Of a DNA stretch of 64,000 nucleotides, positions 46,006-63,252 are shown piece by piece. The translations under genes and the position numbers were made by a program. Source of the DNA: Balanoglossus misakiensis (lineage: Eukaryota; Animalia; Hemichordata). Under the pieces are notes generated by a model. It did not search any database, was not told the origin of the DNA, and saw only the letters and a list, made by a program, of their open reading frames with translations. Every line of letters starts with the position of its first letter. Position 1 is the stretch's first letter. The DNA lies in assembly GCA_040954595.2 (NCBI GenBank), contig CM082596.2, positions 5,220,791 through 5,284,790 on the forward strand, written 5' to 3'.

Positions 46006-47757
46006 ATTCTTGCTTATCTGGCAAGAGAATAGACGTTCACACGTTGAGGCCACTTTCACTGTAAGCTGACAAAGCTGTAAGCTGACATAGGCTGACAATC
46101 ATGTATGCCAATATTATAAGAAGCAATTTCACGACATTACCCTCTATCTATACAGACGTGATGCAAGTACCTGTACCAATCCTCATCTAAGTATTTAGTG
46201 ATATAAATTCACCATAGCATTGATAACTTTATCTAGCCAATCACAGAGTTTCAAATTGATAAAGCAATATTCAATCTGAACATGACGAAAATATCCCTTT
46301 TTGTGTAACTCACTGAATAAAGTATCCATACGGCACAGTATATTGATTTATTGAAACTGCACAAAAAGTTATTAGTTTCCGGGCTCCATAAAAACCAGTA
46401 TAAATTATTTATAATTTGACATTACCTAGTGTTTCCCACAAATCGTTGAATTGATTGGCGGGGACCAATCTCACGTTGTATTATTTGAACCAGCACAAGA
46501 TAAACGGTCTGGTATGAAGAGGTTAACCACGCTTACTCGTGTTTATTTAAATTTAAGCGTGCCAGTGATCAAACAAACCTTCAATCATACACCTGTGATC
46601 AATCATACTGTGCCAGGGACTGTATCCACAGGTAGAACGCTTCAGAAAAAAATCGAAGACGATCTCAAATTGAATTTTCTCTACTTATTTTTCTTTCCAC
46701 TGGTTGCGTTGATCGAAAAAATAGCAGAAAAGGTTCAATACTGTATACACCGCGTGAAAATTACCTTTCTCTGGTTAAACCTGCGTGTCTGCAGACGAAA
46801 GCATTTCGCACAGACTGAGTAAACAGATATTTTACGGAAAACTTGTTATATGGTATAATCACAAGAAGGAAAGTGAAAATTAACAAAGAATTGTGGTAAA
46901 TTCCAACTCACCTTTGTCTGCAACCGATAATGACACAACTGTCTCCTGGGATGTGCCCCGTTCCGCGAGCGACAGTTACGAGCGAATGACAAGGCCGATA
47001 TGGTATACGCTTATAAACGACGGCGCTGCGCATTAAAGGGCAGACGGCGCTCGGGAGGGTGCGTGTCACTGCCGCTAATGGGAAAACACAGCGTATCGTG
47101 CGCGAGGAAATAGACGACAATTGGACGCAGGAATGTGGAGTTTCCAGCCCACCGAGAAAGCACAATGAAGTCATACAAATATTGATGCATCCATACGGTG
47201 AACCGGGTGAGCCAGGCTCACGAGAATGCGATATAAATTATACTGGAGACGGAATTACGAAGCAGTCCGAAGTCTATTGAACTTATAGAAAACCCACAGA
47301 CCAGGATTATTTTTTTGAGTATTTGCAATACGTGCGTTGTATTGAAGTTTCCAATGAAATTTGTTTATAGAGGTTACGCTATAGCGCCCTTTTGATGCAA
47401 CTGTCCTCATCAGCGGAAAATTTTGAATGCCGGTTCATTGCGAATGATTGCAATGAATTCACAGTGGAGCTTATTAAACCAATTTAATGGTAGGCCTACA
47501 CTAACATGTATGGATACATGCGGCTTAAAGAATATGTCTTGGCTTTCAGTAAATAAACAAATAAGGAAACGGCTGGGGCACAGACGTGGTAGAGACTAGG
47601 TTTGAATCGTGAATAAAAGCTTTTTGAAGTATGAATATCAATTTGAAGGTTAAACGTGAGTGCGTGATCAAACGCAACAGTGATAGTTAGTTTTGTGATA
47701 TTTGATTGAGTGGTAAGTGGTGGGTGGATGGGTGGGTTTTGGGTAGGTGGATGTGTT

Positions 47758-48200
47758 GTGAATGAATGAATGAATGAATGAATGAATGAATGAACGAACG
47801 AATGAATGAACGAATGAATGAACGAACGAACCAATGAATGAACGAATGAATGAATGAATGAATGAATAAATGAACGAACGAATGAATGAACGAACGAACC
47901 AATGAACGAACGAACGAATGAATGAATGAAAGAAAGAATGAATGAATGAACGAACGAATGAATGAACGAATGAATGAACGAACGAACCAATGAACGAACG
48001 AATGAATGAATGAATAAATGAACGAACGAATGAATGAACGAACGAACCAATGAACGAACGAACGAATGAATGAATGAAAGAAAGAATGAATGAATGAACG
48101 AATGAATGAACGAATGAATGAACGAACGAACCAATGAACGAACGAATGAATGAATGAATGAATGAATGAATGAATGAATGAATGAATGAATGAATGAATG
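47758..48200. repeat. (GAAT/GAAC)n tetranucleotide satellite with recurring CCAAT interruptions
   Basis: Direct reading of the sequence. Confidence 0.97.
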
Positions 48201-50113
48201 ACAAAGTGAGTAAGTAAATGGATGGATGGATGGCTGTATAGGGAGTGTGAGTGAAGAAGTGAGTGAGTGAGTGAAAGGTGACATAAATGAAAGAAGACAG
48301 GAATGGATCCCTGAAAGCAAGTTTCTCAACTTGAAGCAGTATATAGAGAAAGAAATAGTAACAACTACGGCCGAGACACGTATGTAAGCACGTGATGAAT
48401 GTGTTTGTGGAAGCTGAAATTCAAGGGTGATTTACGATCTGATGCCGAGAGTTTAATGGTGCCTTTTCAGAATGATTCTACAATGGAAACCATACGGAGC
48501 TTGAAGTAAATGAGCGGCCTGGAGGCTCGAGGCAAGTCTAAACCCCCAAGTCAATCTGTGCCTCAGGAGCTTATGGCATCGACGTTTTCACATTTAGCCA
48601 CTAAAGAATAATCATCTATTCGGGGCGAAGGCGCCCCTTAAATTAGTTTTGACGAATGGATTTAAATAATTCACTCACAAATAAACATCAATAAGGGATT
48701 GCGAATGTATAACATGCTTCGGTTGGCAGTTTGAAAAGAAACTGTAGACATTGCGGCACCGTGCATACTTTGTCATCTGTTAATCGTCATGGTTTTATCG
48801 CGAAGGTCAATGTCGGAGCCGATAAATATGGAAAGTAATTTTTTAAATAAATTCACCTATTAATGACCAATTTCAAATTTCATATCAAATTTGTTGGCTA
48901 GTGATGTACATGATGTGGTATGTCAAGAAGGCCGGGGAGGCCAATGACATAGGTTTTTATCATTTAATCAAAACTTATTTGATTAAGCCGAACCTTTGAT
49001 CATGCCAGTATTAATTTCGTATTGCAACTTAAACCGGTTTTTGATACAAAATATAAAGCTGTGTGTATAGAACCACCAACAGAGTGGCATATGGCCGTAA
49101 CTAACAGATCAGTACGGTCTCAAATTTTCTGCGGCTTGTTTGATTTCTCATCAATCGCTAAACGCCTAGTCAGATGGAGAATTTCCAGAAGTCTGTTCAC
49201 ATATCATTGTACTGCTTCTAGATAATCCAGGGCCTTGTCACATTGAAACATGCAAACGCCTTTTGTGATGGGGGAGGGGGGGGGGGGGCTGTCCTGCCCT
49301 GGACTTTCAGCCTTGCAAAAAGCTTGGATTACGTTTGAGTAAGTTCTGGAAAGATATTCTTCCTCACTGATCAATATAGAAAGGTTAAAATGACTTGCCT
49401 GGCTTATAATAAAGGATACCCTAAACAGGGTCTTCAAAATGTTCTACAACAGGGCTATACCTCTTAAAGATACTGACATCTCTTCTGTTTCCAATCTGTA
49501 ATTTAGAGGCAAAAGCAGCATATAAACCACACAGAATCAGTAAAGGTGAGTGCAGAGTCATTTTCTTCGTGCAATTTTCAGAAACCTTTTATTGGCAACC
49601 AAGACAAAACATAACAATTCTTTTAACAATGAGTGTAATTCTCACTATAAATACTTAGTAATAAATACTTTGATATAACCACAGCCAGTTTCTATATATT
49701 CTAACTACATTTCCTGTAATACATCGTACAAACATATAAACTAGCTATTCACTTGTTGACATCATAAGGTTACATGTTAACATAGTTTAGCCACCATCAT
49801 GTAATCTGAATGCTATTACTGCAACCCAGGTGCACATCAATCTAATTCATCCCCAAATTACTCTACAAATTGTCTGTCTTCTTTGCTAACACCTTAAGCT
49901 TGTTAGATCTGAGTTCTAACTATCTGAGTATAACTGTCGAGGAAATTTTTGTAACACTGACATAAAACTTATAATTATCAAATATCAAAACACGTAATGA
50001 AATATATATGGTCATGAACACATTTCTTCAAAATATTTTTTTGCAACGATGTATTACTCTGTCAATTTTGCAAAGAGATATTACTCTGTCATATGTTCAA
50101 ACTCAGAAGAAAA

Positions 50114-53100
50114 TTATATCATCTCTCCATGTAGTGATCCTGACACTTTCTTGATTTCATTTTGTAAGCTGTAAAACAGAAGAAAAATCTAAGTGGGTAG
50201 AAATCTTGAATATTTATGTTGTCATTACGGCATAAAAAGGGGCAGAGAAAGCATTGTGTCATCGATAAAATTTTGTTACAACAAATTATAACATCTGGGT
50301 TATTATAAATGTCCTATTCTACTTATTTCTTGGACCTGTTAATTTTGTTCACATTTAATGATTATGGTTGTTTAGTGTGTTAATTTGTTTTGCTTTCATA
50401 TTAAACAGATTTGGCCACATCTACATTGAAAAATTACAGTAAAAAGGGGGACTGTGATCGTTATAATACCTGATTAATTTACACTGATTTAATTGGTTAC
50501 TCATCATGCATTATTTTTTCAAGTTTATTAGTCACTCAAGTTAGCAATTCAACTAAACAGAACATTCTCATCATTCCATTATTTCAGTTTCTCTGCTTGC
50601 ATAAAGTTAAGCATACCTGCGTATTTCTGCTTGATAATACTTTTCCTCTTCTAGTAAAATCATCTCACGGATTTCCTGATGAGTGTACTGTAAGACGAGA
50701 TGAGAGACAAGCTGATGAGAAAGTTGCTTAATAGACGATCCAGTTTCCACTTTTTAAAGGTATACAGTCACCTATGGAAATTTAGCAACATTTAGTGTTA
50801 CCATGGCAATATTGAGTAAAATTGACATTAACCTGAAAGTTTTCATTCCCATGGCGATAGTAGCATCTGGATGTGGGGTCCGGCGTTGTGTAGATGGTGC
50901 CGGACGTGGGGTTGATGTGGAGCTCTATCACAAAGACATCCTCCAGCTGTTGTCTCTTAGCACTGCTGTTTCACGATGTATAAGAAATGCAACATAAGAA
51001 TACTGAGATATTGGTGACAGAAATTATGATGCAAATACATTGTATGCAACACACACAACAGTGCATAGCCTAGCTTTGAATACCACTCTTGTTTTCATTC
51101 TGTCAAATCTGATGAGGGGGTCTGGGCAGGACTCCAGGCATAAATTCATACAGAATATCGAGTAGATTTGAACAGGTTGATTTGAAGAGGACATGATCTC
51201 TAGTATCTCTTGTGGTAACTATGGTATTGTGTAGTCACCATACAGTATACAAGGGGTCATATAGACAAATTTCCAGACAAATATTCTACTTGGAACATAT
51301 GCATAGTCTTTCTGTTATGTTAACACGTGCAAGGGCTTGCTGTCTCAAAGTACTGGTACCTAACTACTATTTGAAAATTGGTATTTTGAGGGGGGAAAAA
51401 CAACACAAATACTATGACATATTTACCTCTGGTGACCCTCCTCTTTCACTACAGGTGCAAAGACAACTGAGAACTTGTTGTGAGTGACTGCTGGAATCAT
51501 TTTCGTCATGATTCTGTCAACATTGAGACGAATGCGGTCACGCTGACAGACAGGGACAGAGAGAAATAGACAGAGAGAAAGAGAGAGAGAGACGTGTAAT
51601 TATTAGTTCTATGTAACAGTGCTTGAGCCGATATCCTGATAAAGGACAATGTCTCTTTGGGCAATTCTCATACTATATACAGTAATCATAAACCTGTGAC
51701 CTCAGACAGACATGTCACACTATTAAAGTGGCTTATTAAAACCATTTGACGTTGACATGCAGATGTATATTGGTTAATTCCCAGATCGGGTTTGTTACTT
51801 TGCTCCTAGATTAACCTTGTTAGTTGTAAACATTAACGAATTGGAGACATCTTACAGACAGCTGTTGATCTGTCTTACCTCATTCCTGGTCACCTTGACA
51901 CCATACACATGGCCTTCCTCTCCAACACCGAAATAAATAGTACCCCCGCGGCCACTGTTGAGGAACGCGCATATTGTCCGTGATGCTCTCAGAGATAAAA
52001 TCCTTGGAACTTCTGCAAAAGGACTGAATGGTTAAAAAAGAATTTATTAGGATTTCAAGTTTTATGAGTAAATCCAGAGCAACCAACTCAAGACACGTAA
52101 GAAGGCTCGATATTTTAAATAGTACATGTATTTAGTCTGTCTGTCTGTCTCTCACACGCAAACACACACACACACACAGACACATACATTTCATTCAAGA
52201 GAAATATATTATACTACTGCAGATTACCACAGTACCGTACTACACATGATCACAATTTTTGACCAGCTTCACAATTTGCCACAAAGAATAAATAAGACCT
52301 ACCTAATATCATGAGTGTCATCATTCTTAATCTTGGTTGATATTCCTTCAATGTAGAAAGGCAGGGTATCATCTTCAGGTATCTGAAAAAATATTTTATT
52401 TACAACCATATGTTGTTTGAGGAGTATATGTTTACAGCCAAACATACATGTACATTCAAAAATTAAAAATACATTAATTTCTATCGAATCTTAAAATGTG
52501 AATGATGGCAACTTTGGGTACTTACCATCTGTGCAGCATTGATCAGAACAGATTCCTTGCTAGCAAAGTCTTCTTCATTCCTCTCTAAATATCTGTTTTC
52601 TATAAGAAACAATAGATAAGGAGTGAATACACATCATCATGTGGGTACTATAACAGACGTCATTCTTGCTCTCAGATCTTCATGATTATTTCAATCTAGT
52701 TCTTTATTAGGGTTTCCAGACCAGAGGGGTCTCAAAACCCTCTTGAAATCGTGTTGTCTTTTATTATTATTATTATTATTATTCCCACTCCTAAAAACAG
52801 CTGCTATTCGAAGACCATTGCATTGGGGGGCATTGGAGGGGATTAGAGGGAATTGGAGGGGATTGGAGCGAACAACTAATGCAGTCCTACACCCTGCCTC
52901 ATTAAATATGCACATATCTATGTCAAGGCGAACCAATAGGGCTAGTAGTGTCTTGAAACCCGCTTATTGCTGTTCACAGCTATATTTCACTTTTAACTTT
53001 GTTTTTTTTTCCTGTACCAGTATATTGAAGGATGCATGATGAATGTTTACTTACCAAGAGCTGTGTTGTTTCTTGAACGCCCATCATCAGCAGAGAGGGG

Positions 53101-56100
53101 ACAGGTTGCATCTCTGGCACCAGGCACAGGGACATGTGACACGCCGTGATTCTCTGGACAAACACTGACCACGTTTTCCATAGCCGTGGGGTGTATGGCC
53201 TTGTGTACAGCACTTGATGAAGGGCTGTATACAGGTACAATGAACTGCCCACTGAAACTGAAAAAAATGGGACATCATATATGTCACACCCTTATACATG
53301 TACTCCAATTTCCCTGCAAGAGTCCAACCCACCACTGGAAACAATAGGGTTTGAATAACATATACATATAGTAGAGAAAGTGTGAAAGAAAACCAATATT
53401 GAATATAAATGGGAGAAGTGGAAAAAAGCAATGTTTTGTCTGACGAACTGAAATCTGTTAGTAAGTATACAATGTTGACTTGACACATAATTTACTGGTA
53501 TCAGGAAGATTTCATAGTTTGATGTGCCATATGTAATACTGCCAACTCAGCAATACATTATTACCTTTCAGTGGATTTCCTTATTTGGTTAGTTCTTGCC
53601 TTCACAGTATCCACATCATTTTCTTCAAGAGACGACAGTATCTGATCTCGCTGATCATTGTCACATTGTACATCACAGTCAACTTTGCCACTATCAGACA
53701 CCTACAATAACCAAAATCACGATTAAAATATTAACATCATATGAAAGTGAAGATAGAGATGCAGTTACCACTACACAATCATGAGCATTGAAAGATCAGC
53801 AAAAGGAACTGCTTTTAATATTCTGCTACTGAATTTCAATAAAAGTGATTTTTAAGAAATTTATCTCATATTACTAAGAATAAAATACTTATTGCATTCA
53901 TGTATTGTTCTTTGGACAAAACTTACCATGTCAAGTGGAGTATCATTTTGCAGTGATTTGGATAAATCAAATACATCTTCCAGTCTGGAGTTATCAAAAG
54001 AGACAATTAAATACAGGTCAGTACAGTGCTTTATAAACAGAAGCAATCCCACAGACGACCATCCCCCCCCCCCTTTAACCCTTTCACCCCATTTCCTTGT
54101 ATAGAAGCCCAACTGTGCCACAGAAAGCAGTGGATTTGGACCAAACTATGGTGGTGAAAGGGTCAAGCAAGGCAGTGAGAATTACGTGAAGCTGACAGAT
54201 GTCCATAGCAGAGCATCAGGGTCACACTACCAAATTCAATACTGGAGAAAACAAACTGCGAACACAGACCTGATGACACTGGCGCACAGGTTGTTGATGG
54301 CACATAACGCCTTCGTTCTGACGGCCTCACTTTGGTTTCCTTGCAAGATGTTCACCAGATCCTCCAAGCCATTGAGGTCTGCCATCTTCTGACAACTGAC
54401 CATGCATTCATACAGTTGATTCTGCAACGCCCCAATCGCTGCCAATAACACACCTTCATTGGTTGGGTAACTCTTGCATAAATCTGAAATGGTCAATTTT
54501 CACAGTGGGGTCAATAAGACTTATTTAGACTCATTTAGAATCAGTACCACTTTTTACATATATATATAGAGAGGGAAAATGAAAATTCCTAGGGGTAAAA
54601 AACCAGTGGTCGACATGTGGCCTAGCCAACCCTTCACATTATTACTAGCAGTATTATTGGCTTGTCAGATGACGATTTTCAACACAATGATTACCTAACA
54701 TTGCAGTAATTCCTCCTCTTCGTCCTATGAAGGATCTCAAGTTTGCATTCCTTGCACAGTTGAGAAGGACACCGGCAGCACTCTGACAAATACTGGCCAC
54801 AGGAGATTGACATAACTGCATAATAATTTTACAATAACAATATAGTTATCTGATGCACACTATGATGTCTTCAGAATGCTGTGTAAATTTTACAGTGGCC
54901 ATCAGGCAAGACATCAGGAAATTCTGGAATAATTTGAAATATATGTATGTCAGTTTCTGCTGCACATTTATGTATACAGATATATGAGAATCTAAACAAG
55001 CAAGTTACTCAATGAATGAATGAGTGAATGAATGAATGGTTTGATGGATGAATGAATGAATGGATGGATGAATGAATGGATGAATGAATGGATGGATGAA
55101 TGAATGGATGAATGAATGAATGAATGAATGAATGAATGAATGGAATGATGGATGGATGGATGGACGGATGGATGGATGAATGCATGAATGAATGAATGAA
55201 TGAATGAATGAATGAATGAACGAACAAATGAATGAATGAACGAAGGAAGGAAGGAAAGTATTGATTAAGCTTACCTTCATAATGACATCAAAGTTGGAGC
55301 TGTTTACAATAAATTGTCTGTTGGTAAGACTATGTTGACAAAGGTTCTGTAGTATCGCCAGTGAATTGTCAATGATGACTGTACTCAGTGGTGGTGGATG
55401 GACACCTCTCAGTGTGCAAAGCACTGCCTGTGTGTCAAAAAATCAACCAACAGTTGGCATAATCATTAAAAGATCCACTATCTGTAACTTTTGACATTTT
55501 TCCCATCTTGTTTGTTTGACATGGTAATGTACTTATATTATTACACATACCAGACAGTATATAATCATATAATATTCAGTCTCATAACATGCGCCATAAC
55601 CAATGGATGCTAGGTATTGCCCAGAGCTAGGGGATCAGGAAAAACATCAGCCACTTATGCTGCTATCAGTTTCAAAATTACGACCAACAATGTTAGCATC
55701 AATATGCTAGCATACATCAACCATGACATCGAACTGAAACTAGAAAATCTGGCATAGACTCTACCTGGGGCGGAATGCTTCTCAAGGATTCTGGAATCGC
55801 ATATTGCTGCTGCCATGGCAACCTTTCCATGTACCCATAATCCAACGCTTTGACCAGTATGGTTGAGGCAGTGCACCAGTCTTTCACCCTGGCCCTGTAG
55901 AGTCTGTGCTGACTGTGGATGATACTGTCAGCTATTATGATCTCCCCTATACCGGGCTTTGTTTGCAGTCTCTCAAGAGGGTCCTGTTGAATGAATGGAA
56001 ATTGGTTTTCAGAAATTTATCACTTATTTGTATCGGAGACAGATGCCAATATACCTGTTCTAATCATGGCAATTCAACAACTATGAGGCAGATCTTTCAT

Positions 56101-58064
56101 CGACAAACACACAGGCAAAATATTTGAGGAATATTACCTTGTACTTGAGAATGTCTTCAAGTCTGTGAATGGTGTCCACCGTGCCATCTTCAAGCAAATG
56201 TACTCCAAAACATTGCATGTCAGTGATTTCTGGGATGATCACGTCACTCCAAACGCCATCATCTTGACCCTCCTGACGAACCGATTAAAAACACTTATGA
56301 TGATTAACTGAGTTCATATTTCTGTTTCAGACAAAATCACAATATACACCAACAGAAATTTCTAGGAAAACACTGACCCAACACCATGGCAGAATTACAC
56401 TGTAAAATTCACAAAATTTGAGACATATATGCACCTACCATACATTCCTTCTGAGAGACTTGATCGAGAGATGGCCATGCCAATCCAGTCGATATCAACT
56501 CCTGGCTGATACAAACATCACTGTCTGTTGTAGTGTCAAACAGATCAATTTCATATACCTCTTCTGATTCTAATCCTTTGTACCCTACAAAAGAAATCAC
56601 AGCAATAGAAACACATACCTTATAGTTATACACTTCACTTAATCACAGATTCTGCCACAATATAATTACCGTAGGCTTTGCAGACACTACCTTATAACTT
56701 CTACAAGAAGAAACTTCAACAATTTTATCAGCTGTATGACACGTTGCCATGGCATCCATTCAACAAAATTATAAATTTATGCAATGTACTCTTTTCCACC
56801 TATATGAATATTAATTATTACCTGTTGATAATCTTGTCTGTAGATACATTAACTTTTTGTCTTCAAGCTGTCTCACTTTACCTATCATTACTTTGTTACT
56901 GGTAAGCTGCCTAAAAACTCTCAGTGTTTCATCTGGAAAACTGAAACCCAAAAAATCAAATTATAAAAGAGGTAATTGGACCTTAACCCTTAACCACCAA
57001 GAAGTATGTTGGCAAAGTTGGCACACGCATTATTAGGTAGAGAGGTTCTTCACCTACCTGCACTGCAGATTTGGTGCATGCTTAACTCCGTAAACATCAC
57101 ACAAATTGATGAGTAGTTCAACCAGTCCAAGTTTCTTCAGGGTGTTTTGATTTTCGTTGTGATCATAGGTCAAAGTCTGAATCAAACTTGTGGCCTGTTC
57201 GACCAGTAATACTTGGTCTTTCACTGTACAAACATAAAAATGTAATTATTATTATTATTAAATTTTATTTCAGGAAATGAAAAATTCCATATACTTGATT
57301 TTCTTTTTAGCCTATAAATACACTTGCATGAATGGAGACAGCTTTGGCAAGCAAAAGTTAAGTTTATAGTCATTTATGCATATCCAGGGGCATATGAAAC
57401 CAGCCGTTGAATTTCAAAGAAATCAGGCTCTGACTGTGAACAATCCATAAAGGTATACATTGTAGTATGAAAAAGTGCTAAACAGAGAGACAAAACTAAG
57501 CAAACAATCCATGATTGAAGCTTTGTAACTTACCAGATGAGAAACAGACAGACGTAATGTCATCGAGCATTTGTGTGAAGTTGGCAGGGTTACAGACTTG
57601 CTGCTTAACTTCACGGTTGCCTTGACTCAGTAATTTCAACACTGCACACACATGACCTCTGTTGAAAAGATGAAATAACACTATGAAAGAATTACAGGCA
57701 TCAAATGTAAAAGTTTCTTTTTAATTCGCAAACTCGGCCTAAGCTGGACAGAAGACAATTACTGTACCCTTCCCAGATGTAAAATTGACCATCACCACTC
57801 ACACACCCCAGGCTGAAGAAACTGACCAGTCCCTTTGCTAAAATTTCTGAGACTGTAATAAAACAAACAAGTTTAATACCTGAAATAGTGACTAAATCTT
57901 GTCGATCTGAGGTATCCTACACACGCTTCCACGATACCGTTTTCAATCAAGTCTGCTGGAGTCACATCCTTGTGTTTGATGCAACGGTGCAGTTTAATGA
58001 TAGCTTCACAAAGTTCTTCTTCGCTGCTCCCAATGTTGCAAACAATCCTCATCTCCTCTTCCAT
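50114..58064 (-). CDS. Uncharacterised ARM-repeat / extended-Tudor / Schlafen(AlbA_2)-domain protein, 20 coding exons, ~884 aa
   Basis: Hand-spliced GT-AG exons, all phases compatible, 2655 nt: 58064-57880, 57658-57534, 57223-57058, 56940-56822, 56584-56439, 56272-56138, 55983-55765, 55427-55275, 54815-54695, 54483-54270, 53984-53927, 53701-53565, 53257-53055, 52599-52526, 52382-52303, 52023-51879, 51542-51427, 50965-50833, 50687-50617, 50168-50114. ARM: GIVEACVGYL, GLVELLINL, GGITAML, AAIGALQN, ALCAINNL. Tudor: LYRARV...LDYGYME...PPQAVLCTLRGV. AlbA_2: ICAFLNSGRGGTIYFGVGEEGHVYGV. Confidence 0.85.
52704..52987. repeat. Probable interspersed repeat with (TTA)n core and short terminal hairpin
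   Basis: TTATTAGGGTTTC start, (TTA)6, CCCGCTTATTGCTGTTCACAGCTATATT end. Resembles Helentron-type non-autonomous elements, but only one copy is in the window. Confidence 0.35.
54075..54166. mobile_element. ~90-bp TIR mini-element, second full copy
   Basis: TTAACCCTTTCACC...GGTGAAAGGGTCAA. Confidence 0.7.
55010..55258. repeat. (GAAT/GGAT)n microsatellite in an intron
   Basis: Direct reading of the sequence. Confidence 0.97.
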
Positions 58065-60996
58065 GATTTTCTTAATTGTGAGAAGTTTTACAGTTCATCT
58101 GCTGCAGATCAAGTTTGTCATCTAAAAACAAATGAAGTAAAAAAGTTAAACTTTGGGGGCAGCATTCGAAATCGTAGTCGGAAACTTGAACATATTGAAG
58201 CAGTCTAATATACTAGTAGATATTTAATAAAAATGCATACAGAAGCAATGCAGTAATATACCTGCATTAATAAAACGGAAATGCGTGCAATTATTTCACA
58301 AATTCTAGCAACGCCGGCTGCGCGCGTGATCGCGTGCGCGGATACTGATCCGGAGGCCCCCCCCCCCCCCCCTCCACACACACGACACGAAATCATGGAC
58401 ACGTCTTGCGCAATTGTCACTGGCAAAGTTCACCCAGCGGACACAAACATCTACACACGTGCTTCCGTTTGTTTACACACCTGATCGACCGAAACGACAA
58501 CGAATGCCTGTGGGTGTCAACCTGAGGTGTCAATGAAGTGATGCAGAAACTGGGATGACATGACAACTGTTCTGATTGGTCAATGGAAACTTACTCCTTG
58601 GAGAAAAGCCATCACGAACAAATTAACTTTCCCCGCGACGACCTCAGCAGCTGTGAATACGTGAAATATATGCTGGAACTGATCAACACACTAATGCGTC
58701 ACTGTCTCAGTTATTTGAGGAAGTAGGCCAACCGGTGACAATCTTACTAGTATCTGCGGAACTGGCCACATTTTACAGACAGGAGTACAAGTAGCAAAGG
58801 ATCGTTGTTGACATCTTTCGCCTCGTAAGTACAGATCGCTAGATCACTTCAAGTTCAACTGTCCTAATTAACTGTGTACCGTAATATGCGCGGCCGTGCG
58901 AAATCCTATTCATGGTATTGTTTATGTTATTGGGACATTATCAGATGTTCGGTAACACCTCCCCAGCCTTTTGTTCTTTACTGAATACCAATTTGCAAAT
59001 CAATTTCCTGTCAGACAAATGCGTCGGACGTGTGTCAATGTCGCGATCGCGATCCCAGCTGGAAATGCACTCGAGTCAATTTCAAGTGTTTGTATCTTAT
59101 GCAGACGGTCAATGAAGTAGGTAGGGCCTCGTGCCGGGCCGTACATATGCTGTCCGTGGATAGGTCGAGGTTTTGCCCGGTGTTGGATGTTTATCTGGTT
59201 TTCGAGTCTGACCCAACACCGGGCAAAACGGCGATCTGCGGTTCTGCAGGCTGGATTGACCGGTACAGTCACAGTCCTCTGGGACGTGACTGTGGTGCAG
59301 TCAATCGTTTTTGAGGACTGGTAATCGATGACACTCATGGTCGCCTTTCCTGGTTCTAACGATACGACAGCAAGACCTCACCAAATAAAAATGACTAGGA
59401 GAAACAAATGCCACTTTTTTGTGTTGTTTATGATGTTTATTACAGCCACAGTGTTTTTCTATCTGTGTCAGTTGCCCACATTGTATATTGTGTGTGCGTC
59501 ATGGTCTGCTGCTTGTTACATGTCAACAAAAATATTGTGATTGTAGTACTGTACACTGCGCAGATAATGGTGGTTCCAGGTCACCTACTGTCAATCTCAT
59601 CTAAACCATTTTTGAAAACAAACAAAAAAACAGAAACATTTCATCTGTAATACTAATACTGTACATTTTTTGTATCACTATTTACTATCTTTTTTTGAAC
59701 TGTTTTGGGTTGTGAGGACCTCCCCAACCAACAGCAAATACCATAAGAGCACTGTTGTCATAATAATATAATATTTGTAGTCTTATGCTTCCTGGGTTTC
59801 AAGCATCACGATTTTTGTTTGTTTGGTTGTCAGCAGGTCATATGACATGTATGATATTGTTGTTCAGTATGGCATTTGCTGGCACATCATGGCCATTTAG
59901 CAGCATATGTGCCAAGCTAGTAAATATAGACACATTGATAATTATAGAAAAATATCATTTGCCGTTAGGGATGATAACCTTGTAACTTCAGATATTTGAT
60001 ATAATCAGTCTGGCATCAAGGATAAAACTCAAGGATATATATTTTGCTGTGTTTGAGCCCTTGTCTAATGAATATGTAGTTACAACAGAGTGGTTGGCAG
60101 CACTCCAACTGGGATATTTTCATGTACAAGCTATTAAAAAAAATATTTAGTTCCCCTTACATTTTCACGTCAGCAGCTACCAAATGTCTCAGTTTGTGAG
60201 ATTTACCAGAATTCTTCATCTGCTAAATTTTTAGCCGAGTCTCATTGCAGTAGTGTTAGTAAGTATATTCCCACACATTATGGTATTCACGTTTGATCCC
60301 GGGTTTCACTTCATTTTTAGGGTTTTCTGCAGATGAGATCTGAGAAAATGACAAAAAGATTACTCAAAAATGTTCCTCCTCAGGGAACATTGAACCGCGT
60401 GTATTAGCCTTTATGACAGGAGAAAGACATGAGAACAAACACAGAAGGTCAAGTGAATCACCTGTGCTCAGTACTGGCCTTGAGGGTAACAGTATATGTC
60501 TGTCACCCAAGGTCACCCCAAAATGGTTTGAAAGGCTGAGGCGAAAACAGACCATTACGGGGCGTCACTCAGAGGCCCGAGGGAAGGGAAGACGTCATCC
60601 TGTTACCCAAAAAGAGCCAGTCAGTGTGTGTTTGTTATGTAACACACCTCATTGAATTTATCGGAATTAATTGTCTGTGAATGGTTTGGCCGCAGTACGG
60701 ACAGACACTTTTTGTTTGGTATGTTTCTTGGGCAGATACTTTCAAGGCAACATTCGTCAGAAATGTTACCGGGTCAGGTAGCAGTTCAGAAAGTTTTAAA
60801 TGCCCATATATGTTGACGTCGACATTTCTATAGATATAAACAATGGATCTTTTGTCAGTAAACTAAAGTGTCTTTTGGAAAATAAAAGATTGCATGATAA
60901 ATGGTGAAAATTACTAACTTCTCTTTTTACCGTTTTTTTTTCTTATGCAGAAACTGAAAACCAAGCATACAAAAAAATTCAAGACACCAGGAAAAT

Positions 60997-63252
60997 ATGG
61001 AAAAGTCTGAGCAGAACGATCAACTTGTCCAGCATGCCGGCCAGGTGCTTTCATCGATGGACCGACTCCGACAAGACCGAGTTCTGACCGACTTGACCAT
61101 CCACGCCGATCACGGCCAGATCCATTGCCACAAGGTCCTACTGAAGATCTGTGGTCTTGACTTCTCCGAGTTGTGTTGCCAGGAAGAGTCAGTCACCACC
61201 AGACGGAAAGGCGGGCAGCAGACCGCGGTGAGAGTCGAGAACTTCACGGCGAGCGTCATCGAGGACCTGGTCGACTTCTGCTACACGGGGAAACTGACGA
61301 TCACCACGGAGAACGTCAAGCAGGTGCTGCAGGCGGCGACGCTGGGGAAACTGACTTTTCTCACCGAGGAGTGTTTGAAGTTCCTGGAACTGCGGCTGGA
61401 GCTGGACGATGACTTCCACGGCGGCCACGGGCAGCCGGACAAGGTCACCGTGCGCCGGCCCGCCCACGGGCTCCACGTGCTGACCGAGTTCCAGATCATG
61501 AAGAGCCGCTCGGAGAACACCGACGTCTCCCTGACGTGCCAGGAGGACGAGTTCTCCTGCCACAGCCTCATCCTGGCCGCCTGCAGCGACTACTTCAAGG
61601 CCATGTTCACCCACAACTTCACCGAGCAGAAGGCCCGGAAGATCGATCTGGTGGAGCCGGCCGACATCGTCGAGGATCTCGTGGCGTTCATGTACACGTC
61701 CAACCTTGACATTGAAGACGAGGGGATCCTCGACTTCCTTGCCAGCGCGGCGTACTTCCAAGTGTGTTTCCCCCCCGCGACCATCAGCAGTATCAAAGGC
61801 ATCGTCAGTACGGACAACTGCTTTAAGATATTGGAGATCTCCAACGTCTTCAGCGCCACGCTCCGAGACTTCGTACTGCAGTTTGTCCTCAAGAACTTCC
61901 CCAAGTTGGCCGATAACGAGGATTTCCTCAATATGCCGCTGCCCGTCGTCAGCCAGATTCTCTCTGACGACAAACTGAACGTGCTGGCCGAGGAGATCGT
62001 CTTCGAGGCCGCTTCCAATTGGTTGAACTACGACCACGACACGCGCTGGGGCTACCTCGACGAGCTGATGGAGTGCGTGCGCTTTCCGCTCCTCCACGAG
62101 TCCTTCCTCCGGGACATCATGGAGCAGCAGTCGTTCATCCTGAAGTCCGGGATGCTGAGGGAGAAGCTGGAGGTGGCCATCAAGACCAAGCAGGTGATTT
62201 CGTCGGTCAGCGAAGCTTGCAGCGAGAAGTGCCGGCCGAGGAACTCCATGAATCAGGACTTGATCTTCGTGTTGACACGGGCGCTGGACGGTTCAGCGGG
62301 GCCTCGCTGTGCGTTCCTCGGGCTCTCCGACCACGCGGTACATCACGTCAATGCGACCAGCGGCACCCTACCCCCCGGCCTGTCGCGGTTCACCATCATA
62401 GCCAAAGACACGGACATCTACGTGATCGGGGGCTGGGACACGGACCACGACGTGGCCTGCCAGTCGACGTGGAAGTACAGCGTCACCAAGAACGCGTGGA
62501 TCCGCTGCGCCGATCTCAACGTCGCGCGCTACGACGTGGCCGTCGGAATCATGGACGACTACATATACGCCATCGGCGGACAGATCGGCTCCATAGATAT
62601 CACTCACCCGGTCGCCGACGTGGAACGATACGACATCGAGAGCGATGAGTGGACGGAAGTTGAGCCGCTGCCGTCCCCGCTCAACAAGCCCGTGGTGACG
62701 GTGTATAAAGATAGACTCTTTGCCATGGACGCCGGAAGCCACTCCAAAGTGATCCGCACGCTGCTGGTCTACTACAGCTACACGGGACTGTGGGGCATGG
62801 TTCCCGCCGGCGTGGGACTGATGAACATGCGCTACATCGAGCACCTCATGACGTTGAACAACTCCATCCTCTGCTGGGGGCTGTACGACGGCGAGGGCTG
62901 CCAGCTGGCGTACAACGCTTTCCAGAAGTTCAACGCGGAGAACTTCCCGCCGAGGCGCGGCGGCCTGCTGGTGCGCCACCCTCCGTTGGTCTCCCCGCGA
63001 CTGCAGCATCCGGCGAAGTACGAACCCGTCAATCAGGTGGGACTGGCCATGAACGACGACTCGGTGTTCGTCATCAGCGACGCCCAGGCCAGGAGGGGCC
63101 GGCACTTGCTGATAGACAAGTACAACCCGCGCACGAGTGACTGGGACGAGCAGATCGAGATCAGCACACCCCTGTCCAAGGGCATCACGTCGGGGCTTCA
63201 GTGCGTGGTCTACAAAGGCTACATTGCCAAGCCGTGGAAGCATGAAAATTAA
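60997..63252 (+). CDS. Kelch-like protein with two BTB domains, BACK domain and Kelch repeats (single coding exon, 751 aa)
   Basis: BTB1 TDLTIH...CHKVLL...LVDFCYTG; BTB2 TDVSL...CHSLILAACSDYFKAMF...FMYTS; BACK EEIVFEAASNWL...VRFPLL; Kelch IYVIGG, IYAIGG, VERYD...W. Splice acceptor at 60950 just upstream of the ATG. Confidence 0.95.
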   Translation: MEKSEQNDQLVQHAGQVLSSMDRLRQDRVLTDLTIHADHGQIHCHKVLLKICGLDFSELCCQEESVTTRRKGGQQTAVRVENFTASVIEDLVDFCYTGKLTITTENVKQVLQAATLGKLTFLTEECLKFLELRLELDDDFHGGHGQPDKVTVRRPAHGLHVLTEFQIMKSRSENTDVSLTCQEDEFSCHSLILAACSDYFKAMFTHNFTEQKARKIDLVEPADIVEDLVAFMYTSNLDIEDEGILDFLASAAYFQVCFPPATISSIKGIVSTDNCFKILEISNVFSATLRDFVLQFVLKNFPKLADNEDFLNMPLPVVSQILSDDKLNVLAEEIVFEAASNWLNYDHDTRWGYLDELMECVRFPLLHESFLRDIMEQQSFILKSGMLREKLEVAIKTKQVISSVSEACSEKCRPRNSMNQDLIFVLTRALDGSAGPRCAFLGLSDHAVHHVNATSGTLPPGLSRFTIIAKDTDIYVIGGWDTDHDVACQSTWKYSVTKNAWIRCADLNVARYDVAVGIMDDYIYAIGGQIGSIDITHPVADVERYDIESDEWTEVEPLPSPLNKPVVTVYKDRLFAMDAGSHSKVIRTLLVYYSYTGLWGMVPAGVGLMNMRYIEHLMTLNNSILCWGLYDGEGCQLAYNAFQKFNAENFPPRRGGLLVRHPPLVSPRLQHPAKYEPVNQVGLAMNDDSVFVISDAQARRGRHLLIDKYNPRTSDWDEQIEISTPLSKGITSGLQCVVYKGYIAKPWKHEN

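Follow-up and report, generated by a model that had tools for sequence, protein, structure and literature searches.

Background

Schlafen (SLFN) folds are described as working in pairs or trimers, and in Caenorhabditis elegans single folds assemble into PUCH (TOFU-1 with TOFU-2 and SLFL-3/4), a complex in which TOFU-1 is described as lacking catalytic residues and as contacting the staphylococcal nuclease-like (SN-like) surface, not the aromatic cage, of the extended Tudor (eTudor) domain in TOFU-6, a subunit of PETISCO (PMC10567574). Here we describe a gene on the minus strand of a 64,000-nucleotide (nt) stretch of the acorn worm Balanoglossus misakiensis (GenBank assembly GCA_040954595.2, contig CM082596.2, positions 5,220,791 to 5,284,790), hereafter the window, whose 884-residue product joins armadillo (ARM) repeats, an eTudor module and a Schlafen/AlbA_2 domain in one chain. 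We read this product, at a probability of roughly 45%, as a non-catalytic scaffold that pairs with a hypothetical, separately encoded active single-domain Schlafen and brings it to RNA, most likely in germline small-RNA processing of the PIWI-interacting RNA (piRNA) type. Like the PUCH subunits it has one SLFN fold per chain, and like the TOFU-1/TOFU-6 pair, in which a non-catalytic SLFN subunit is tied to an eTudor by a surface outside the cage (PMC10567574), it combines a dead Schlafen fold with an eTudor; unlike them, it holds both in a single polypeptide with ARM repeats, and its eTudor is permuted. PUCH is further marked by a catalytic SLFN subunit within the multimer, by cleavage of piRNA precursors that depends on the cap, and by an anchor in the mitochondrial membrane, and TDRD proteins of the piRNA pathway by expression in the germline, location in nuage and binding to PIWI.

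Other relatives are known for each part. Vertebrate SLFNL1 and invertebrate single-domain Schlafen-like proteins have one AlbA_2 domain, as the fused protein has. SLFNL1 is reported to keep the acidic triad, and its involvement in small-RNA biogenesis has appeared in print as a suggestion only (bioRxiv 2024.01.12.575368); the fused protein differs from it in having no RRM by Pfam and no triad. The AlbA_2 fold is also common to SAMD9/9L and mammalian SLFN5/11/12/13, whereas no NTPase/helicase module and no second SLFN lobe were detected in the fused protein and the triad is absent; P0002 and P0005, two of its orthologues, gave no P-loop NTPase match in Pfam, and their AlbA domain lies at the C-terminus. 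TDRD1, TDRKH/Papi, Vreteno, Qin and SND1 carry a Tudor barrel inside an SN-like oligonucleotide/oligosaccharide-binding fold, as does the fused protein, but in the latter the halves of that fold are swapped and embedded in an ARM array, only two cage aromatics are present, and the barrel lies on a single skippable exon.

Results

A 20-exon gene with orthologues in two other hemichordates

Splicing by coordinates from the ATG at 58064 to the stop at 50114 gave a coding sequence of 2655 nt, or 884 codons closed by a terminal stop only, and all 19 introns (117–461 nt) were bounded by GT-AG. The junctions are based on consensus sites and orthologue alignment, and the length of the frame varies from 884 to 892 residues with the choice among nearby acceptors; the exon-19 acceptor at 50687, preferred by orthologue alignment, yields exactly 884. 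Exons have a GC content of 44% compared to 35% for introns. The ATG is preceded by an in-frame stop, and a non-coding first exon upstream of it, with a donor near 58262 joined to the acceptor at 58121, is likely. Each of the 20 exons aligns in order to P0034, a protein of Ptychodera flava, and tblastn returned 15 colinear minus-strand high-scoring segment pairs within the locus (E < 1e-9 for 12), so the exon chain is not a product of chance and the gene is real, with a single open frame.

Pfam searches of 17 single exons gave three matches above the cut-off, TUDOR in exon 7 (E 5e-7), Arm in exon 10 (8e-6) and SLFN_AlbA_2 (PF04326) in exon 16 (1e-7; 32.5 bits against a cut-off of 25.3), and the orthologues scored 43.4 and 29.0 bits for PF04326. 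Profile searches with the Schlafen domain also matched SAMD9 (7ksp, E 1e-6) and SLFN12 (2e-5), while beta-propeller and T-cell-receptor matches of exon 16 were set aside as chance matches. With exon 16 as query, an unfiltered phmmer search returned 33 matches, the best single-stretch ones being P0002 (794 residues, E 9e-10) from P. flava (isoform X2) and P0005 (815 residues, E 3e-5) from Saccoglossus kowalevskii, both RefSeq 'uncharacterized' proteins, and a further search with P0002 as query added P0034, the 867-residue isoform X1 of P. flava. These are full-length orthologues with the same layout, and the 884-residue model shares 59% identity with P0034 over 852 aligned residues and 43% with P0005 over 779. 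Each orthologue has one AlbA_2 stretch. The initial annotation had proposed this single 884-residue frame over 20 exons and had expected profile searches to find ARM, Tudor and AlbA_2 domains, and both proposals hold, the three domains being detected on separate exons. Its domain order (ARM, Tudor, ARM, linker, AlbA_2) stands in so far as the single fused protein is also annotated in the two other species, but needs revision at the Tudor module, which is a circularly permuted eTudor; the coiled coil that it placed at the C-terminus corresponds to a long helix predicted by AlphaFold2 (AF2) at low confidence only.

On the full-length orthologue AF2 modelled only the ARM parts, with a mean predicted local distance difference test score (pLDDT) of 42. 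The linker before the Schlafen domain is poorly conserved (10–30% identity) and no structure was modelled for it by AF2, while its frame is open throughout and parts of it align to P. flava. No further full-length member was found beyond the three hemichordate records among 7994 and 179 candidates, by a search method of limited reach; the Atlas gave no feature match and no cluster with the ARM-Tudor-Schlafen architecture among 10 structure entries; and none of 446 pattern matches in a metagenome scan was confirmed. When exon 16 was used in a word-based homologue search, no match came back, but this search missed three proteins having its 15-residue core: the apparent hemichordate-only range follows from searches of limited sensitivity and should not be taken as proof of restriction.

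The Schlafen domain is without the catalytic triad

Active Schlafen and SAMD9 domains are described as relying on two Glu and one Asp (E184/E196/D241 in SAMD9; PMC11221667). When the profile is aligned to SAMD9 (7ksp), the E in HEFK counts to E196 and the D in GVKD to D241, and the column of the first Glu was fixed by the ExxxxEFK spacing in relatives and in SLFN11 (chain 7fex) rather than by SAMD9. The register is set by a DxTH motif common to the sequences, between the first two catalytic positions. Read in the order first Glu, second Glu, Lys and Asp, these columns are E/E/K/D in all four single-domain relatives chosen as references (P0019 from Bulinus, P0021 from Rhipicephalus, P0031 and P0016), compared to N/D/S/E (N705, D710, S712 and E747) in B. 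misakiensis and N/D/S/L and N/D/R/R in the other two fused proteins. The E/E/D triad has thus become N/D/E, N/D/L and N/D/R, and the Lys of EFK has become S, S and R, so that none of the three family members has the acidic triad, or the Lys, by which active Schlafen RNases are recognized. The references share with the fused proteins a C(A/G)FLN..GGT core, the DxTH that precedes the second catalytic position (three of four references) and a similar C-terminal helix (in two), but they keep the triad, are 175–330 residues long, have no Tudor or ARM domain and carry a CWCD insertion that is absent from the fused family.

Measured against Saccoglossus, identity of the other two proteins is 57–59% in the Schlafen domain, 53–55% in the Tudor barrel, 45–51% in the ARM repeats and 10–25% in the linker, making the Schlafen domain the best conserved part, compared to 33–57% elsewhere. 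That a domain without catalytic residues is conserved argues for a retained non-catalytic role, and it is likely, judging from these substitutions, to be a pseudo-nuclease selected for binding.

Among other proteins recovered in these searches, P0003 (1950 residues) has a DEAH-type helicase fused with four AlbA_2 domains, and P0004 and P0008 are tandem fusions of a double-stranded RNA-binding domain with AlbA_2 and of S1 with AlbA_2. In eight of 19 short matches (P0009, P0010, P0011, P0013, P0026, P0027, P0029 and P0030) the third catalytic position is K, R or Q, and their exon seems to end where exon 16 ends; profile scores gave no assignment for these eight, which might represent additional dead Schlafen domains or orthologues from other animals.

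A circularly permuted eTudor with an incomplete cage

The profile of the Tudor module matches TDRD1 (5m9n, E 1.5e-8), SND1 (1e-3), Tudor-SN and TDRKH over a stretch that begins at the first strand, includes the barrel and ends with the strand after it, the best solved match being germline TDRD1, and Pfam places TUDOR at positions 8–121 of the orthologue stretch. Past that strand the sequence becomes ARM repeats instead of the SN-like C-terminal half. This half is located upstream, where profile positions 7–39 resemble 5m9n 161–194, positions 56–80 resemble 4b9w 173–197, and P0034 211–248 aligns to TDRKH (6pi7) 165–202, each match being non-significant alone; exons 5 and 7 taken singly gave no PDB matches. 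When P0034 254–384 and 158–244 were folded as two chains, the score was 0.76 compared to 0.02 for the best control, at least 88% of contacts were common to the three split-domain runs with a partner pLDDT of at least 80, and the tightest predicted contacts (260–265 with 177–182 and 373–376 with 209–212) suggest strand pairing. The mark for a split fold was reached by 51 of 78 solved pairs compared to 2 of 108 mismatched pairs (39 of 65 compared to 2 of 126 in eukaryotes), and the pass may reflect memory of solved eTudors, so that it supports likeness of fold, as is proposed here. The barrel and both SN-like halves of a TDRD-type eTudor are present, but not in the canonical order of N-half, barrel and C-half; the order is swapped, with the C-half (P0034 158–244) before the N-half and barrel (254–384), and the swapped halves are predicted to fold into one domain. 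AF2 on the intact module, with a shallow alignment, gave a pLDDT of 37, and this model, for which Foldseek found no match at E ≤ 0.001, was discarded.

The methyl-arginine cage of SND1 is given as F740, Y746, Y763, Y766 and N768 (PMC12370926). At these positions the three fused proteins have S/T/P, Y, A/A/S, Y and Y/H/F, so that two of four aromatics are kept and the Asn is lost, and none of the three has the four aromatics and Asn of methyl-arginine-reading Tudors. By its residues, the domain probably does not read methylated PIWI tails. A preprint reports no binding of methylated ligands by cage-degenerate Qin eTudors (10.1101/2021.10.25.465661), and eTudors without a cage are described as binding partners that lack methyl-arginine, with binding away from the cage possible (PMC10711660). 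Because the triad is absent and the cage incomplete in 3/3 family members, the protein is unlikely to be either a nuclease itself or a canonical reader of symmetric dimethylarginine on PIWI proteins, the two activities that the initial annotation had implied for these domains.

In the annotated models of P. flava, isoform X2 (P0002) differs from X1 (P0034) by exactly the 73 residues of exon 7, the Tudor barrel, which is skipped. The barrel-less isoform had no Tudor match among 41 rows of results, and the splice sites of exon 7 showed no clear weakness relative to those of other exons.

ARM repeats around the Tudor insertion

AF2 placed helical repeats at residues ~1–136 and ~386–529 of P0034, with a pLDDT of 49–83 for the N-terminal helices, and these helical blocks match ARM structures in Foldseek. 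The C-terminal block aligned to the designed ARM protein 4dba in VIA with a Z of 20.1 and a root-mean-square deviation (rmsd) of 1.9 over 153 residues, and the three-helix repeat of Armadillo-repeat proteins is seen by the Pfam Arm match, the AF2 helices and the VIA alignment alike. Its profile matches include beta-catenin and plakophilin; beta-catenin is the top ARM match, at a low identity from which the parent ARM gene is not assignable. In P0034, helices H1 and H2 of a repeat lie at 127–148 and the next H3 at 386–402, and the Tudor module is therefore predicted to occupy the loop that joins H2 to H3 within a single ARM repeat. Simple symmetric exon shuffling of the insert was considered and found to be unsupported, its 5′ edge lying near intron 3 and its 3′ edge inside exon 8.

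Features of the gene and its neighbours

Coordinates are collected in Table 1. Neighbouring genes, as scanned by Pfam over positions 1–46000 and 60958–63252 of the window, are ordinary, and there were no small-RNA genes among 11 neighbouring open reading frames (ORFs). (GAAT/GGAT)n microsatellites at 55005–55260, inside intron 8, and at 47500–48430 produce spurious ORFs.

Table 1 Features of the fused gene and of its surroundings, in positions of the window
Feature	Position	Strand	Remark
Whole coding sequence, 20 exons	50114..58064	-	884 residues
Exons 1-5	58064-57880, 57658-57534, 57223-57058, 56940-56822, 56584-56439	-	
Exons 6-10	56272-56138, 55983-55765, 55427-55275, 54815-54695, 54483-54270	-	
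Exons 11-15	53984-53927, 53701-53565, 53257-53055, 52599-52526, 52382-52303	-	
Exons 16-20	52023-51879, 51542-51427, 50965-50833, 50687-50617, 50168-50114	-	
N-terminal ARM repeats, exons 1-3	57058..58064	-	Apparently end with H1-H2 of the repeat broken by the Tudor insert
C-terminal (SN-like) half of eTudor, exons 4-5	56439..56940	-	Precedes the N-terminal half
N-terminal strands and long helix of eTudor, exon 6	56138..56272	-	Profile alignment to SND1, Tudor-SN, TDRD1
Tudor barrel, exon 7	55765..55983	-	219 nt, phase 0-0; S312, Y321, A338, Y341, Y343 against SND1 F, Y, Y, Y, N
Last eTudor strand, resumed H3 and three more ARM repeats, exons 8-11	53927..55427	-	
Divergent linker, exons 11-14	52526..53984	-	Ends in conserved LINA(A/T)Q motif directly before the Schlafen domain
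Single SLFN/AlbA_2 domain, exons 15-18	50833..52382	-	Degenerate catalytic positions
Codon of N705	52323-52325	-	
Codon of D710	52308-52310	-	
Codon of E747	51918-51920	-	
Long C-terminal helix and stop, exons 19-20	50114..50687	-	Similar tail in single-domain animal Schlafen-like proteins P0019, P0031
CpG-rich stretch	58000..59250	.	Observed/expected 0.8-1.1; likely promoter
Candidate polyadenylation signal	49588..49593	-	First AATAAA past the stop
Weak topoisomerase match	~1.1-1.6 kb		Pfam
EGF repeats	~18.5 kb		Pfam
RPE65-family oxygenase	~26 kb		Pfam
Lon protease	31.6-35.8 kb		Pfam
TMEM26	41.6-42.4 kb		Pfam
Pentraxin-like/C-type lectin	44.4-45.9 kb		Pfam
BTB-BACK-Kelch	61-63 kb		Pfam

Discussion

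The analysis establishes the chain of exons, the presence of all three domain families, the loss of residues in three species and the swapped order of the eTudor halves. We favour the scaffold reading introduced above, by which the fused protein may work like the TOFU-1/TOFU-6 pair, a likeness that does not make it a PUCH member. By this analogy, coupling of a Tudor adaptor to a Schlafen complex is plausible, and we infer a possible link to piRNAs. The dead Schlafen domain would complete a multimeric nuclease as TOFU-1 and SLFL-3/4 do in PUCH, its partner being a triad-intact single-domain Schlafen of the kind seen in snails and ticks, and the scaffold would dimerise with this partner and carry it to a granule of RNA and protein. 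Unmethylated partner peptides could be bound by the groove of the ARM repeats and by the SN-like surface, and skipping of exon 7 would remove the Tudor barrel and leave the SN-like fold, making the binding surface switchable. Tandem TDRD-type arrays are mainly germline piRNA factors, and the simplest account of the permuted module would be an origin in such an array, cut from the middle of one eTudor to the middle of the next.

Several observations weigh against this reading or its parts. The splitting of one ARM repeat is weakly supported: in the three proteins the joined score was reached by 1, 76 and 2 of 300 shuffles, and H1-H2 joined to H3 gained no more than 2 bits over H3 by itself. As to one solenoid running on around the insert, the helix pattern fits, full-range ARM alignments had an rmsd of 12–17, and no model showed a continuous solenoid. 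The B. misakiensis protein has acidic or amide residues at all three catalytic positions (N/D/E), which are conservative substitutions, and residual metal binding by its Schlafen domain may for that reason persist. A tree of Schlafen domains (26 rows, 9 of them under half filled) joins the three fused proteins (94/99) and leaves their sister group unresolved. Nematodes, from which PUCH is known, lack Zucchini; hemichordates probably keep it and would depend less on a 5′ nuclease of the PUCH type. Finally, eTudor domains are not limited to the germline, as in the case of SND1.

A dead triad suits a decoy as well as a partner, and the protein might instead be a pseudo-nuclease regulator outside the piRNA pathway that binds an active Schlafen/SAMD9-type RNase, restraining or targeting it, either in innate immunity or in the control of translation. 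The targets of most AlbA_2/Schlafen proteins characterised so far are tRNA/rRNA and viral translation, and the family appears lineage-restricted in the searches run, as immune genes often are; but the TDRD1-like module points to germ granules, and 43–59% identity across hemichordates with one match per species is unlike an expanding immune family; we consider this regulator rather doubtful. The strong conservation of a Schlafen domain without catalytic residues would also suit a stand-alone RNA-binding scaffold that binds RNA uncut and needs no active partner, as reported for SLFN5, which binds tRNA without cleavage (PMC11221667), with the ARM and Tudor parts recruiting it to granules. The single SLFN folds of PUCH, however, are described as needing partners to make an enzyme (PMC10567574), and a scaffold acting alone seems to us rather doubtful.

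An active nuclease with a rebuilt site is conceivable either in the Schlafen fold, where N, D, T, H and D of an ND(D/S)THD motif are invariant in 3/3 proteins, or in the SN-like part of the eTudor, RNase activity having been reported in a preprint for cage-less Qin eTudors (10.1101/2021.10.25.465661). The third catalytic position, by contrast, is E, L or R and so unconstrained, the Lys of EFK is lost, and a single E-to-A or D-to-A change is reported to kill function in TOFU-2 (PMC10567574) and hamster SAMD9L (PMC11221667), leaving such a rebuilt nuclease improbable. It is hardly credible that two adjacent genes, an ARM-Tudor gene and a Schlafen gene, were joined by gene modelling alone. The poor conservation of the linker, the AATAAA hexamers in introns 15, 14, 13 and 19 and the status of the orthologues as computed gene models would allow it, but the same fusion was annotated independently in two species, all introns are shorter than 470 nt, and the frame is open across a linker of which parts align to P. 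flava.

Conclusions

A fused ARM-Tudor-Schlafen protein or a permuted eTudor was not described in the titles and abstracts of the full-text literature searched, a coverage that leaves out most subscription journals, and neither the architecture nor the permutation nor the double degeneration seems to have been described, although the component parts are known. A bolder and doubtful extension of the scaffold reading is that a PUCH-like Schlafen nuclease for small RNAs, assembled independently of that in nematodes, operates in acorn worms and perhaps elsewhere among animals. The fused protein would be its 'TOFU-1 plus TOFU-6' subunit, with a dead Schlafen domain, a permuted eTudor and an armadillo solenoid, and splicing of the barrel exon would act as a switch. 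For a possible part of Schlafen nucleases in small-RNA biogenesis outside nematodes, a deuterostome Tudor-Schlafen fusion gives a concrete handle. Whatever its function, a natural circularly permuted eTudor in an ARM array, its barrel confined to a single exon that can be skipped, offers a clear example of how domains evolve.

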